This document shows positions 30,275 through 57,508 of a DNA stretch of 64,000 nt, piece after piece (position 1 is the first letter of the stretch; every line of letters begins with the position of its first letter). A program made the translations under genes and the position numbers. The notes beneath the pieces are model-generated. The model had not been told where the DNA came from, searched no databases, and saw nothing but the letters and a program-made list of their open reading frames with translations. Origin of the DNA: Nitrosopumilaceae archaeon (lineage in GTDB: Archaea > Thermoproteota > Nitrososphaeria > Nitrososphaerales > Nitrosopumilaceae); the NCBI GenBank assembly GCA_965208905.1, contig OZ242365.1:832001-896000 (forward strand). Reading direction: 5' to 3'.

Positions 30275-31710
30275 AGGACTTATCCCTGTAACTGTAACCT
30301 AAAAACAGCCAGACTTGTAAACCCATCTCATGAGTTAGGTTTTTAAAGTACTATAGTGTATAGAACGGTATATATAGATCACATAGTGTCCGCATAGACC
30401 TGACACGCCCTCAGGCGCGTCACATATCCAAAATACGGAACTCACAGCGGTTCGTGTATAATTGGGCCGTAGAAAAGTTGCTGGTCGACCCCACACTCAC
30501 CGCATACGATCTCCAAAGTGAGTTTACCAAACTTCGCAGATGTACACCGCACCTACAGGAAGTGGAGCGCATATACCAAAATACGGCCATCAAGCAGGCC
30601 CGCACTGCTGCGGATGTCTCAAACAAATACGGCAACGGCAAACTAGGTTTCCGCTCCAGAAAGCGCGACAATACAAAGGCAGTATCATGTGGTGTACAGC
30701 CGCGATTTGTGGACAACAAGCATGCGTCATTGCCGGGCCTTGGTGTTGTTGAGTTGCCTGAGGAGCAGCCATACCAATTTCCACACAACTGGCTGTATGG
30801 CTCAAGGTCTTCCCGTTTGGTATGTGTAACACCAAAGTCGTGGATACATTATACGCCAAGTGACCACATATACAGGCTGCACATAACATATGACGTACCT
30901 ACACCCGAACGGCGCGCCAAAACCGGTGTTGTTGCCGGCATAGATGGGGATAACAAATCCAACGGTTGTCTGTAAGACAGACCACAACACTTCGTGTATA
31001 ATATCGTACGACACGGCAACCGCATTCCGCACGAACCGTACATGGAATGATGATGCGCGTCGCACCATATCACACCGCAACAAGCATTCCCGTACAACAT
31101 ACAAGATGAAACGTAAGCGAGAAAAGTACAATCGTGGTAATGCGAATGACCGCGAGTATGCGGAGTGGCTTCTAGCCAAGAAGATATGCGAGGGCGTGGA
31201 TGTGATATATGTCGAGCAGCTCCACCTTGAGGCCATGAGCAGGCGCGGTGGTAGGCACAAAAAGGGCATGAATCGTGGTATGCGGTTCATTCGGCATTAT
31301 GCAATACTGCGAAAGATACGCATTATCGCAGAGCGGTTGGGCATCCGTGTAGTAGAAGTGAATCCAAAACACACAAGCCAGGAGTGCAGTGTGTGCGGCT
31401 ACACAAACAAGGAGAATCGAAATGGGGAGATGTTCAAGTGTCTCAAATGTGACCACATGGCAAACGCCGACGGCAATGCGTCGGTGAATATAATTCAACG
31501 GGGGACCGGTATGAAGGTTCCCGCGGGGGAAGGAATAGTCCTCGAAAGGCGTGAAATGGGCCGGACCCGGAAGCCACCTGTTTGTGCAGTTCCGGACGCC
31601 AGACGGCGGCGTGAGAATCAAGCGTGCAATCGACCCAAAACATCAAGCGTCATGAAGCACCTGGGAATGTACGCGTATGTTACGTATGTTCAGTAAGGTG
31701 GATAATTCCC
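30275..31710 (+). mobile_element. TIR-bounded TnpB-only element, family B (degraded copy)
   Basis: Ends AGGACTTATCC / GGATAATTCCC; TSD AAGGATCC at 30267-30274 and 31711-31718. Confidence 0.75.
30454..31696 (+). pseudogene. tnpB: Frameshifted TnpB
   Basis: Frameshift near 30945-30950 right at RuvC-I (VAGID); second ORF has YVEQL, CSVC/CLKC, NADGNAS. Confidence 0.85.
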
Positions 31711-31995
31711 AAGGATCCTAATGTTGCACCAATACTTATCCAGAACACAGTGGCAGAGACGGCAGTCATTGCGCGATATCATTCAATGTTGGGCAAGTAG
31801 GCCGGTGCATCCGGCTACTCTTCTGCATTATGCGGGTCTCCTCATGGAAGCCTAAATGTGTATGCCTGAAAAGTTGATGTTATATCTTTTAATTACTATC
31901 AATCATACGAGTTGTTTTTTTGTGTTTGTTAAAAAGTAGATTGTGCTTCTATGATGATCATGGGGACTATGTGGGTCAGTCGATATCTATACATT

Positions 31996-32565
31996 CTATG
32001 GTGCATCTATAGATGAGGTTATGTTTAGAACCTGACTTTCTTGAGCGGAACCCACTGCAGTATATGTGGCAGTAAATTCATCACCACCTGTGTGGAATAA
32101 CAGTCCTGCTCCAGAGTACTCAAAGTATCCTACCTTCGAGTCAATATCCATAAATGTCCAACCGTATACTCTATCATCATCTATTCTCCAAATTGCTTGA
32201 CCACGTGAATCCTCATTGTTCATCTCATGAAGTATAACAATATCTATAGGCTCACTGGCGACATATGACACAGTACCAGCGTATATGATGCCATCACTTG
32301 GCTCTAGTACTCTGACTATCTGGTGTGTCTCATGTCCTAGTCCGGGTGAGAGGGCTGAGTCTGCTGTCTGGGTAAAGCGGTACTCGTGACTTGTTGGCTC
32401 CATATGCTCCATACTATCCATATGCTCTCCATCATCTGAGGCCGCGATTGCTGCTTGCTCTGACATAGACCAAGATAGGAAGATTGCGCCTAACATTGCA
32501 GCTGTAGCTACTCCCATTAGTATCATTTTCATTGCCCTTAAGGATTGATCACTATATAAAAACAT
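31996..32565 (-). CDS. Secreted/membrane-anchored hypothetical protein
   Basis: N-terminal hydrophobic helix; His/Met-rich linker; PGLGHETHQ. Confidence 0.7.
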   Translation of the reverse strand: MFLYSDQSLRAMKMILMGVATAAMLGAIFLSWSMSEQAAIAASDDGEHMDSMEHMEPTSHEYRFTQTADSALSPGLGHETHQIVRVLEPSDGIIYAGTVSYVASEPIDIVILHEMNNEDSRGQAIWRIDDDRVYGWTFMDIDSKVGYFEYSGAGLLFHTGGDEFTATYTAVGSAQESQVLNITSSIDAP

Positions 32566-32609
32566 TAACTCTGTAGGTTATCTGGAAAATACGGCTGATG
32601 GTAGTTTTA

Positions 32610-34035
32610 GGGAATTACATACAAAAGTACAGATCCTACGCATCCTTAAATATCAGTATACCGTATTACACATTATGATACGGATAGTCAAGGTACCGCT
32701 ACGAAAGGATGTGTTGTTTGCAGAGTGGGCGCACCGCACGAATCATGCGTCAAGATATGTGTACAATCAGGCTGTATCGGAGTACCTGTTTGGCGGGGAA
32801 TACATGGAGAGGGTGGTAGTGGACATCCTACAGCCCTTCAAACTGCCAAACACGCTGGACGATTTTACATCAGGTACGCTGGAAGATGACTACCAGGCAT
32901 ATGATTTTGGACCGTCTAAATATGCGCTAAAGTACGGCATGTACAAACAGCTTACAGAGTGGCGCGCCAAACATACATGGTTGCGCGAATGCCCCATGGT
33001 ATTTGGCCGCGGCGCCATACAGGATGCCTCGGTTGCATGTAGAAGAGTTATACATGACAACTCCGGCCACGCGCCGTACCGCCGTAAAGACGGCCGCATC
33101 ATACTATATAGTGTAAACCCGCCTGTACGGAAGGATGATCATACAGTACGAATACCCGGATATGGTATGGTAAAGACCGCAAAACCCATAGACGAAACAT
33201 GGGACATGCGGTCATTCAAGATAGTTGATGTTACCAAGAAGGTGACCAAATACACCAAACCATCCGACCATATGTTTGAGCTGCACATTGCTGTATACAC
33301 ACCAGTGGAACAGCACCGTACTACGGGCGTAATACGGGGTGTCGATGTGGGTGGCAAACACCTGGCAGTCACGGTAGACACAAACGGCAACGTTACAATA
33401 CACAACACGCGCCATAGAATAATCCTGCGGGAGATTGACGCGCTAAAGAGCCTGCGCGACCGCAAGGTACGGCATGGCCGGAAGTGGCATATATTGAACG
33501 ACCAAATAAAGCGGCTATACAGGAAGGCTGATGGCATCGCCGTGAATACGATAAACCAGACCGTATCGCGTGTAGTACAGGGAGTGGATGCAGTCATAGC
33601 CGAGATATTATCCATACAAGACATGACTGCACATGGCGGGAATTACAAAAGACACATGAACCGCTCCATGCGGGAGAACCGACTTGGTGAATTTCTACGG
33701 AAGTTGGCGCAGCGATGCGAGAGGGAAGACATTCCGCTATACGGGGTGATGGCCGCATATACGAGCCAGACGTGTCATGTGTGCGGTCACACAGACTCGG
33801 AATCGCGTGTATCACGCGACAAATTCATTTGCACTAATTGTACCAGAGTGTTTCACGCGGATGTCAATGCCGCCTGGAATATTTTACATCGGGCGGCGGG
33901 GAACGTCGTCCTAAGACGGCCGGGGCACAAGGAGGGCTACAAGCCAACACCCGCCATGCTCCGTTCCATACAACGAGGTCGTCAGAAAAGACATGAGTGT
34001 ACAGCTACGGCTGTGTACTTTTGTATATAATTCCC
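32610..34035 (+). mobile_element. TIR-bounded TnpB-only element, family B (intact)
   Basis: 22-bp TIRs GGGAATTACATACAAAAGTACA / TGTACTTTTGTATATAATTCCC (1 mismatch); perfect 8-bp TSD TAGTTTTA at 32602-32609 and 34036-34043. Confidence 0.93.
32675..34030 (+). CDS. tnpB: TnpB RuvC endonuclease (451 aa)
   Basis: RYVYNQA, RGVDVGG, VIAEIL, YTSQTCHVC/CTNC, HADVNAAWNI. Confidence 0.92.
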   Translation: MIRIVKVPLRKDVLFAEWAHRTNHASRYVYNQAVSEYLFGGEYMERVVVDILQPFKLPNTLDDFTSGTLEDDYQAYDFGPSKYALKYGMYKQLTEWRAKHTWLRECPMVFGRGAIQDASVACRRVIHDNSGHAPYRRKDGRIILYSVNPPVRKDDHTVRIPGYGMVKTAKPIDETWDMRSFKIVDVTKKVTKYTKPSDHMFELHIAVYTPVEQHRTTGVIRGVDVGGKHLAVTVDTNGNVTIHNTRHRIILREIDALKSLRDRKVRHGRKWHILNDQIKRLYRKADGIAVNTINQTVSRVVQGVDAVIAEILSIQDMTAHGGNYKRHMNRSMRENRLGEFLRKLAQRCEREDIPLYGVMAAYTSQTCHVCGHTDSESRVSRDKFICTNCTRVFHADVNAAWNILHRAAGNVVLRRPGHKEGYKPTPAMLRSIQRGRQKRHECTATAVYFCI

Positions 34036-34255
34036 TAGTTTTACGTATACCCGGACTCACAAATTTGTCTATGACGTTATACAAGAGAGATGCTCAAAGT
34101 AATACTGTGTTTACGACCGAACGTTGTCAAAAATATATCCTAACCTGAATACGTCCTGACCATCTATATGTGGCTCAATTTAGGTCCGCACCAAACTTTG
34201 GGGACGAAACTATATTCCATAAGATAATTAAGAGCCACATTACAGTATTTACAGT

Positions 34256-34423
34256 ATGACCAAATGTAGTGAATGTGACGCGGATATATCCACTCCCACA
34301 GATGCCTTAGAAGGAGAGATTGTGACGTGCGCTGATTGTGGAGCAAGTTTCGAGTTGATTGGTAGTTCGGATCCGTTTAGTCTCAAACCCGCCCAGACGG
34401 TAGGCGAGGATTGGGGGCAGTGA
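34256..34423 (+). CDS. lysW: Amino-group carrier protein LysW-like, ending EDWGQ (not in ORF track)
   Basis: MTKCSEC...GEIVTCADCG...VGEDWGQ; stop overlaps lysX start. Confidence 0.88.
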   Translation: MTKCSECDADISTPTDALEGEIVTCADCGASFELIGSSDPFSLKPAQTVGEDWGQ

Positions 34424-35268
34424 ATCCTGACATAGCCATACTTTACGATACTATCAGGTGGGAAGAGAAGGCCTTGCTGGCGTCAGCAAAAGATATGGGT
34501 GTGACTACCAGTATGGTAAACTGTAAGGGCCTGCATCTGGATTTGGAGGGCAAGACAGACAAGTTTGGTGTGGTACTTCAAAGATGTGTCAGCTATTACA
34601 GAAATGTTCACTCCACAGCGGCACTAGAAGGCATGGGCGTGGATGTAATTAACTGTCATATGACTGGCATACTCGCTGGCAATAAACTATACTCTCACAT
34701 GTTACTCAAAAATGCCGGCGTACCCACACCCAAGGCAACTGTCTCATTTTCACAAGAGGCTGCCTTAAAAGCACTGGATGAGATTGGATATCCTGCAGTC
34801 ATAAAGCCAACCGTGGGAAGCTGGGGCCGACTAATATCAAAGATAAATGATCCAGAGATAGCAGGCAGTATACTGGAGAGCAGGGAGAGTATGTATCCCA
34901 TATACCAGATACACTACATCGAAGAGTTCGTAAAGCGACCTCCTAGAGATATCCGTGCTATAATGGTGGGTGATGAAATAGTGGCAGCCATATATCGTAC
35001 CTCCCATGATAACATGTGGAAGACCAATACGGCCTTGGGTGGAACCGCGGATCCGTGTCCTGTAACACCTGAGATGGAAGAGATGTGCATAAAAGCATCA
35101 AATGCCGTAAGTGGTAAAATCGTGGGTGTGGATTTGATGGAGAGTGATGATGGGTTGTTAGTACATGAAGTAAACAACACAACTGAATTCAAGAACACTG
35201 TACGGGTTACAGGTATTGACATAGCCGGCGCCATGATAAAGTACGCAATACAGAGGGCCAGACGATGA
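34420..35268 (+). CDS. lysX: LysW-aminoadipate ligase LysX/ArgX (ATP-grasp)
   Basis: IRWEEK, KPTVGSWGR, RDIR, EVNNTTEFKN. Confidence 0.9.
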   Translation: MNPDIAILYDTIRWEEKALLASAKDMGVTTSMVNCKGLHLDLEGKTDKFGVVLQRCVSYYRNVHSTAALEGMGVDVINCHMTGILAGNKLYSHMLLKNAGVPTPKATVSFSQEAALKALDEIGYPAVIKPTVGSWGRLISKINDPEIAGSILESRESMYPIYQIHYIEEFVKRPPRDIRAIMVGDEIVAAIYRTSHDNMWKTNTALGGTADPCPVTPEMEEMCIKASNAVSGKIVGVDLMESDDGLLVHEVNNTTEFKNTVRVTGIDIAGAMIKYAIQRARR

Positions 35269-50737: not shown

Positions 50738-50782
50738 GGGAATCATATACATGAGTAATGTTTACTCATGCATATAATTCCC
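50738..50782. mobile_element. 45-bp palindromic micro-MITE of family B TIRs
   Basis: GGGAATCATATACATGAGTAA-TGT-TTACTCATGCATATAATTCCC; flanks TTCAACTC / TTCCACTC. Confidence 0.82.
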
Positions 50783-57476: not shown

Positions 57477-57508
57477 ATGAGTAATGTTTACTCATGTATA
57501 TGATTCCC
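57477..57508. repeat. Truncated second copy of the family B micro-MITE
   Basis: ATGAGTAATGTTTACTCATGTATATGATTCCC, 30/32 identical to 50751-50782. Confidence 0.78.

Follow-up and report, generated by a model that had tools for sequence, protein, structure and literature searches.

The DNA analysed here, called the window below, is a stretch of 64,000 nucleotides (contig OZ242365.1, positions 832,001 to 896,000) from a Nitrosopumilaceae archaeon. The source genome is a single contig of 2.21 Mb (99.57% complete), and the host is a sponge-associated, Cenarchaeum-like archaeon. The window contains an element of 1426 bp that is bounded by terminal inverted repeats (TIRs), flanked by an 8-bp target-site duplication (TSD), and in which tnpB is the sole long open reading frame (ORF). 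ORF and domain searches of the 1426-bp element detected no transposase gene. Judged by its sequence, the element is a non-autonomous DNA transposon with IS1595-type ends and tnpB as cargo, since its ends and its 8-bp TSD match those of elements harboring an IS1595 transposase, while tnpB is all that it encodes. Because no DDE_Tnp_IS1595 domain is encoded, the element is a non-autonomous relative of the IS1595 family rather than a member of IS1595 proper. An initial annotation, made from the sequence alone, had described a transposon with TIRs, a TSD, and an intact TnpB, and all of these items were recovered. That annotation had overlooked the type of the transposon, a non-autonomous IS1595-type element that is one among many in the genome.

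The element, its TnpB and its copies

The TIRs form a pair of 22 nt with a single mismatch (C/T at position 9). Searching for the pattern GGGAATTAYATACAAAAGTACA returned exactly two matches in the window, the left TIR on the plus strand and the right TIR on the minus strand, and two or more matches were obtained in 0 of 100 shuffles, in agreement with the one-mismatch TIRs initially described. In a repeat search, the inverted repeat widened to 29-nt arms at 90% identity. The TSD is perfect, as had been claimed (TAGTTTTA on both sides), and does not result from chance because a perfect TSD was present in 11 of 15 copies of the element and because an empty-site contig was identified (see below). 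The TAA stop codon of tnpB is indeed embedded in the right TIR; it occupies the identical place in all 15 full-length copies of the family (family A) and also in many other families. The reported hairpin, TACAGC-TACG-GCTGTG, was confirmed as the core of a longer stem (about 33991-34024). A TTAAATA motif kept in 15/15 copies of the family alignment is a candidate for driving a leaderless or near-leaderless tnpB mRNA.

TnpB from the window matched PF07282 (Cas12f1-like TNB, C-terminal zinc-ribbon) at 64.2 bits (cut-off of 26.3; E-value of 1.2e-17) and PF01385 (OrfB_IS605, RuvC-like) at 21 bits, below the curated cut-off of 30.5. The latter result reflects divergence rather than absence of the domain because PF01385 is listed for close relatives and because the fold matches that of TnpB. 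The top Foldseek matches of an AlphaFold2 model (pLDDT of 77.5, with low confidence at residues 42-84 and 410-451) were 8h1j (ISDra2 TnpB, E-value of 1.9e-17) and 8iaz (ISFba1 TnpB, 1.7e-16), both ranking above Fanzor2, and 8iaz also came first in a profile search of PDB sequences (8.3e-19). In an alignment of 43 sequences extending to generic TnpBs at 21-26% identity, D224, D396, and the four cysteines of the zinc finger were invariant and E310 was at least 90% conserved, in keeping with the intact D/E/D RuvC residues of the initial annotation. We also considered a relocated catalytic glutamate (RuvC-II rearrangement), as the canonical position is occupied by Q/K in the HMM alignment to 8iaz; this was rejected since E310 belongs to a conserved column of the 43-sequence alignment. 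TnpB is under purifying selection in each copy lineage: the full ORF is intact in 14 of the 15 copies, all 15 end at the same TAA, and the median dN/dS is 0.21 (range 0.10-0.32 over 90 pairs). The clade is narrow, with about 43 protein clusters at least 38% identical to the window TnpB, all from Cenarchaeum metagenome-assembled genomes (MAGs) where the source is named, and next relatives at 31% identity or less.

The 15 full-length copies of family A were detected in the genome by BLAST. Identity to the window copy is 82-86% for the remaining 14, and pairwise identities range from 77 to 98% across the family. The TSD is perfect over 8 bp in 11 copies, matches at 7/8 positions in one, and is missing in three. 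The window copy is the shortest, lacking about 45-50 nt after the left TIR that are present in the other 14. Additional relics comprise one copy split by a nested insertion, a 641-bp derivative with an internal deletion, and three solo right-end remnants of 164-200 nt, which start at element positions 1227-1263 (about 33836-33872). At G000:C1:1972621-1975198, the split copy of family A combines a perfect TSD with about 1.1 kb of inserted DNA between its two tnpB halves. Family-A insertions are located in intergenic DNA near gene starts. A pattern scan of metagenomes for relatives gave 82 pattern matches, of which 0 were confirmed, and a contig scan gave only 3 loci, all in one Cenarchaeum MAG already included. 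For 20 more loci (18 degraded G003 copies, one G007, and one G009), a TIR/TSD pair was recovered in 0/20.

Public contigs were aligned over window positions 31700-35200. A DNA contig of 6859 nt (X5) links position 32601 straight to position 34036. The 1434 nt absent from this contig correspond to the element plus one TSD copy (1426 + 8), the 8 letters fitting either side. The contig differs from the window by 19 differences and an 18-nt insertion over 1685 nt aligned, and represents a naturally empty site of a related strain. In X6 the site is occupied, as its contigs span both junctions. The 18-nt insertion, a tandem-repeat-like unit, is present in X5 as well as in X6, at position 32398 in the upstream minus-strand gene (31996-32565).

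The terminal sequence GGGAATTATATA recurs throughout the genome; the left TIR of the window copy differs from it at position 9 (C for T). Two further tnpB families with these termini and 8-bp TSDs were identified, family B (1420 bp) and family C (1554-1639 bp), as well as four tnpB-less elements with 8-bp TSDs (two copies of 2131 bp, one of 2690 bp, and one of 2837 bp). The 2690-bp and 2837-bp elements have the terminus in common over 12 nt, and both 2131-bp elements over 10 nt. The 2690-bp element encodes a protein of 319 aa that matches DDE_Tnp_IS1595 at 2.9e-40, its IS1595 zinc ribbon being slightly below the cut-off (24.8 vs 25.4 bits), and a genome-wide search for the family revealed four open IS1595 transposase frames of 320-323 aa. 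A TSD of 8 bp is typical of IS1595 (ISfinder), the prokaryotic family to which the Merlin transposons of eukaryotes are related. The ends and the TSD length in common with the IS1595 elements suggest that IS1595-family DDE transposases mobilize the element in trans. The 2837-bp element (G000:C1:1043578-1046414) additionally encodes an intact 454-aa N6/N4 DNA methyltransferase fused to an HNH nuclease domain, and a homologous methyltransferase-HNH ORF, apparently split, is present in the 2690-bp element (1770047-1772736).

Elements of the same design were found in other genomes of the genus and in a second genus of the family. Numerous families in these genomes share the termini along with TSDs of 8 bp, and for the majority the last base of the stop codon is 5 nt from the element end. 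The genome contains in total 50 TnpB-like open frames of at least 250 aa, together with TIR-only mini elements of 45-450 bp that have TSDs. A search for Y1 TnpA (PF01797) gave 0 matches in this 99.57%-complete single-contig genome and was positive in 6 of 14 control genomes. A canonical IS605-like tnpB family (about 440 aa, 11 copies, for example at 250699, 402508, and 769431), with palindromic ends and no TIR, coexists in this genome without a Y1 TnpA (PF01797) to move it.

The right end and the left flank

Applied to 19 right ends of this genome, RNAalifold predicted four stem-loops, SL1 (33845-33885), SL2 (33891-33911), SL3 (33915-33983), and SL4 (33991-34024), the last being followed by 11 unpaired nucleotides (ATATAATTCCC) up to the element end. 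The alignment was enlarged by sister-family ends from three other genomes (n = 30, 78% mean column identity). In the resulting consensus structure, 97.8% of the cells were paired, compared to 40-52% if the partners were slid by 1-3 columns. Changes on both sides (compensatory changes) were detected in 10 pairs, compared to 1-4 after sliding, and the observed score was reached by 0 of 500 shuffles. The compensatory pairs reach up to 190 nt into the element, in the coding sequence (SL1-SL3). The inner TIR of the G006 sister family is wholly different, and a matching change has occurred in the coding sequence that forms the 5' arm of SL4. No matching hairpin is present at the left element end. 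The stem-loops form a candidate scaffold of an omegaRNA, the guide RNA of TnpB, that would extend through the TIR and have the boundaries listed in Table 1. The three solo right-end remnants, which start near the predicted 5' boundary, count in its favor. Rfam searches identified no family matching this candidate RNA, the only two matches being at chance level (E-values of 0.34 and 0.38) and below the gathering score.

Two observations concern the same stretch. In a subfamily of family A (G000:C1:728475-729950 and 1344785-1346263), the inner parts of both TIRs co-vary with the 5' arm of SL4, CAAAAGTAC being replaced by GATTAGAAC along with its partners. The 42 C-terminal residues of TnpB (410-451; 33902-34027) have a pLDDT below 50 and are coded by the SL2-SL4 stretch; RNA constraints may prevail over protein constraints at these residues.

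Contigs of the RNA library X17 matched the element only at 33850-34009 (0 differences) and, for another copy, at 33854-34005, and none covered the rest of tnpB. Library X16, which originates from the same study, contained pieces of other copies across tnpB. The X17 contigs provide no more than a weak hint of a right-end RNA, given that they reveal neither ends nor strand and that neither the gaps nor the end at 34009 are evidence of absence or of an RNA end.

To compare insertion sites, flanks were oriented by tnpB, position -1 being the base directly 5' of the left TSD and position +9 the mirror position on the right. In family A, a G was present at -1 in all 13 copies with a TSD of at least 7/8 (16 copies were examined, and the three without TSD had A, G, and A). 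In the G006 sister family, this was the case for 4 of 5 such copies (7 examined, the two without TSD having G and C). Pooling both sets, G was found at -1 in 17/18 insertions and C at +9 in 3/18 (Fisher, 4e-6). The motif ATNG preceded 9 of the 18 insertions, compared to a background of 1.8%; the base at -3 was T or A in 16, and the first base of the TSD was T in 15. Family C also had G at -1 (4/4). For families with other TnpBs and the same termini, the corresponding values were 0/3 (family B), 1/5 (family E), and 1/7 (family F), and family B2 had A in 3/3 cases. The G, or ATNG, of the left flank looks like a target-adjacent motif (TAM) and would fit a guide starting with the TSD. Promoter architecture was rejected as the source of the G since flanking ORFs had no consistent orientation relative to tnpB (same vs opposite, 6 vs 7 upstream and 7 vs 6 downstream). 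In G006, family-A-like elements are inserted in AT-rich 8-mers (L063-L072) and families E and F in GC-rich 8-mers (L043-L048). As the termini are shared, this difference in target preference hints at distinct transposases or distinct selection.

The predicted guide target (TSD plus right flank) begins with TAGTTTTACGTATACC. In the genome, the predicted guide of the window copy matched only its own junction, which is preceded by TTCCC, and one unrelated place with 3 mismatches. Trans targets were searched for with predicted 18-nt guides, including those of the three solo right ends: among the matches listed, 18 guides had a perfect match only at their own right junction. The own right junctions are preceded by TTCCC (TTCCA in one copy).

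Table 1. Coordinates of the element and of its observed and predicted features in the window.
Feature	Position	Strand	Remark
Whole element	32610-34035		1426 bp
Candidate TAM, ATGG	32598-32601	+	Family pattern A-T-N-G with G at -1; directly 5' of left TSD; predicted
Left TSD copy, TAGTTTTA	32602-32609		Single copy kept in the X5 empty-site contig
Left TIR	32610-32631	+	22 nt; first 12 nt are GGGAATTACATA, one mismatch to GGGAATTATATA
Candidate tnpB promoter, TTAAATA (archaeal TATA-box-like)	32646-32652	+	22 nt upstream of ATG
tnpB ORF	32675-34030	+	451 aa
Catalytic D224	33344-33346	+
Catalytic E310	33602-33604	+
Catalytic D396	33860-33862	+
Zinc finger CxxC...CxxC			C367/C370/C386/C389
Candidate omegaRNA scaffold	33845-34035	+	SL1-SL4 plus single-stranded tail (34025-34035)
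Hairpin TACAGC-TACG-GCTGTG	34000-34015	+	Top of SL4
Right TIR	34014-34035	-	Inner part is the 3' arm of SL4
tnpB TAA stop codon	34028-34030	+	Within conserved terminal 12 nt of right TIR; last base 5 nt from element end
Right TSD copy, TAGTTTTA	34036-34043		First 8 nt of predicted guide
Predicted guide template (TSD plus flank)	34036-34053	+	Length of 18 nt assumed

A homing model and its alternatives

These data can be assembled into the following model. An IS1595 transposase acting in trans, provided by at least four elements elsewhere in the genome, would cut the element and paste it into AT-rich intergenic 8-mers. The tnpB gene would be transcribed from the TTAAATA motif just inside the left end. 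The 3' portion of the transcript (about 190 nt, approximately 33845-34035) would fold as the scaffold, with four stem-loops, the last of which is located on the inner right TIR, and an 11-nt tail. Read-through into the flank would provide the guide, which would hence start with the TSD. The ribonucleoprotein (RNP) would cut only if a TAM of the left flank (G at -1, approximately ATNG; ATGG here) directly precedes the TSD and right flank, an arrangement corresponding to the empty allele. Cutting of the empty allele would favor copying of the element back by recombination from a filled copy. Filled alleles would be protected at the right junction because TTCCC precedes the target and at the left junction because only 8 nt match. 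A restoring role of this kind, via cutting of the empty site, is the one proposed for TnpB generally in the discussions of its function in PMC10691335 and PMC13565253. We consider it probable, although by no means assured, that this model holds as a whole, that is, that an element mobilized by IS1595 transposases has a working TnpB, a right-end omegaRNA, and a guide starting with the TSD that directs cutting of empty sites.

The initial annotation had proposed that the scaffold includes the TIR and that the guide starts with the TSD. This architecture is favored by the four-stem structure, which ends 11 nt before the element end with its last stem on the inner TIR, and by the G/ATNG-like motif 5' of the left TSD, with the RNA contigs stopping short at 34009. 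The annotation had also proposed a self/non-self logic differing from that of IS605. This part was overstated: as in IS605, it is only in the empty allele that the TAM would be joined to the guide-matching right flank, and the sole addition is a match of 8 nt at the left junction of the filled allele.

Several points weigh against the model. The RNA contigs stop before the end of the TIR and the flank, and RNA libraries can hold DNA. Identity at the third codon position shows no more than a modest increase over the scaffold (0.82-0.89 across the final four windows, three windows elsewhere having 0.84-0.86), and the single-sequence fold has a z of -2.07. Much of the covariation merely divides two or three lineages, resulting in few independent events, and the structure was derived from the same alignment that was used for counting. 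Archaeal transcription could terminate prematurely at the TTTT of the TSD. The window copy itself may be impaired in mobility by the missing 45-50 nt next to its left end. Finally, a motif 5' of the TSD is lacking in families E and F, so the TAM-shaped pattern is not general, and tnpB-less TIR elements have G at -1 on 9/20 sides, so the transposase may contribute some of the G.

The last two points are also what would be expected if the right-end structure and the flanking G acted at the DNA level, the hairpin and subterminal repeats in transposase binding or end recognition and the G as an orientation-dependent target preference. TnpB might then still use an omegaRNA, but the pattern would not bear on a TAM. 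The 9/20 sides compare to a background of about 22%, and the concerted shifts of the 5' arm of SL4 and of the inner TIR with its left partner in subfamilies could also be imposed by a DNA-binding protein. This explanation demands a one-sided preference (17/18 on the left vs 3/18 on the right), and one-sidedness is unusual for the two-fold symmetric transpososome of DDE enzymes. In addition, compensatory pairs are found up to 190 nt inside, far past usual end-binding sites, and the left end has no hairpin to match. We regard a purely DNA-level origin as unlikely. Repurposing of TnpB as an RNA-guided binder that does not cut, and that might regulate its own promoter or a neighboring gene, would be compatible with the location of the left junction, where the candidate TAM and the 8-nt guide match lie about 40 nt upstream of the TATA-like motif of tnpB, with insertions that are intergenic and near gene starts, and with the exapted TnpB regulators described in PMC10691335. 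The D/E/D residues are conserved family-wide, as in active nucleases, the gene resides in a mobile multi-copy element rather than at a fixed host locus, and the predicted 18-nt guides had no second genomic target among the matches listed. This makes exaptation very unlikely here. TnpB could also be passive cargo devoid of a role for the element, the stop codon in the TIR being mere compaction, since one trans-acting transposase suffices for mobility and TIR-only mini elements exist. Such a lack of function is hardly credible in view of the median dN/dS of 0.21 across copies that are 77-98% identical, of the 14 intact ORFs among 15, and of the tnpB 3' end abutting the right end, with the stop codon 5 nt from it, in many independent families.

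The model of TnpB-directed cutting of empty sites leads to a broader, more tentative proposal, according to which TnpB-omegaRNA homing has been grafted onto a cut-and-paste IS1595-type DDE transposon and decides which insertions persist. The transposase would pick AT-rich 8-mers irrespective of the TAM, and only insertions directly 3' of a TAM could be restored or driven into empty alleles. The presence of the motif on the tnpB-upstream side only in 17/18 surviving insertions would then be due to the persistence of TAM-adjacent insertions alone. We view this as possible rather than probable. A further possibility is that the RNP binds without cutting where the TAM and the 8-nt TSD match occur at the left junction of a filled allele, about 40 nt ahead of the tnpB promoter, and thereby tunes expression of the element's own tnpB.

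Related elements and known systems

Other elements with the same ends were observed in the window and elsewhere in the genome. About 900 bp upstream of the studied element, a truncated B2-like tnpB (30944-31710; 250-aa ORF, PF07282 at 5.4e-18) is the remnant of a second IS1595-ended tnpB element; its right end, GGGAATTATCCACC in the minus-strand reading, is at 31710, and a left end was not found for it. The window also contains a 45-bp element consisting only of two facing TIRs with a 7/8 TSD (50738-50782) and, at 57508, a single TIR of this type. Two family-C copies of 1639 bp (G000:C1:1455264-1456902 and 2049469-2051107) have identical ORF sets and TnpB proteins, and GGAAATTA flanks one of them as its right TSD and the other as its left TSD. 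Such a swap suggests recombination between copies about 594 kb apart.

The closest precedent for a TnpB in such a context is provided by Altae-Tran et al. 2023 (PMC10691335), whose main text describes six DDE-associated TnpB branches (DDE-1 to DDE-6). Their transposons have inverted terminal repeats, and the 3' end of TnpB is no more than 250 bp away from the end of the transposon. For some solo TnpBs, the flanking ends were those of transposase-bearing elements, and mobilization in trans was inferred (PMC10691335). The DDE family named there for TnpB association is IS630, and 'IS1595' is absent from the main text, supplementary tables aside (PMC10691335). The DDE families with TnpB named in the relevant passage of a 2026 review are ISL2, IS630, and IS1031 (PMC13565253). 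Our searches by title or abstract for literature on TnpB in IS1595 elements, on Cenarchaeum TnpB, or on IS1595 together with IS1341 found nothing relevant. As far as these descriptions go, the studied element resembles DDE-associated TnpBs by its inverted terminal repeats, by the tnpB 3' end near the transposon end, and by ends in common with transposase-bearing elements; it differs from them by the IS1595-type ends, the Cenarchaeum-like archaeal host, the stop codon in the TIR, and the TAM-like asymmetry of its sites. The guide RNA of Fanzors overlaps the right inverted repeat or TIR according to the cited portion of PMC10530073, as does the candidate RNA described here. In contrast to the studied element, in which the scaffold lies nearly entirely within the ORF of a compact archaeal TnpB, Fanzors are from eukaryotes and giant viruses, and their guide RNA (fRNA) extends well beyond the ORF.

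Solo tnpB elements of the IS200/IS605 type (IS1341 group, ISDra2) have the same protein family and fold, an omegaRNA from the 3' end of the gene, a guide from the right flank, a TAM in the left flank, and the empty site as the only full target. They are devoid of TIRs and TSD and are moved by a Y1 TnpA, whereas the studied element has TIRs and an 8-bp TSD and resides in a genome lacking Y1 TnpA. With the IS1595 family, the element has in common the terminal 12 nt and the 8-bp TSD; it differs by the lack of a transposase gene and by its RNA-guided nuclease cargo, the 3' end of which abuts one TIR. An overlap between guide RNA and TIR, and the attendant self/non-self logic, is already implied for Fanzors and DDE-linked TnpBs. 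What is new here is the combination of IS1595-type ends, an archaeal sponge-symbiont host, a stop codon fixed in the TIR in many families, and a flank motif restricted to one side.

The list of DDE families carrying TnpB is thereby extended to IS1595-type ends, and compact archaeal TnpBs (about 450 aa) become available together with a predicted scaffold and guide start. The benefit of TnpB to DDE cut-and-paste transposons should be small according to the part of the 2026 review that deals with it (PMC13565253). The genus offers a natural test bed for a benefit of TnpB homing to such transposons, as individual genomes combine several TnpB families with a single type of transposon end, related populations contain both filled and empty alleles, and the one-sided flank motif is family-specific.

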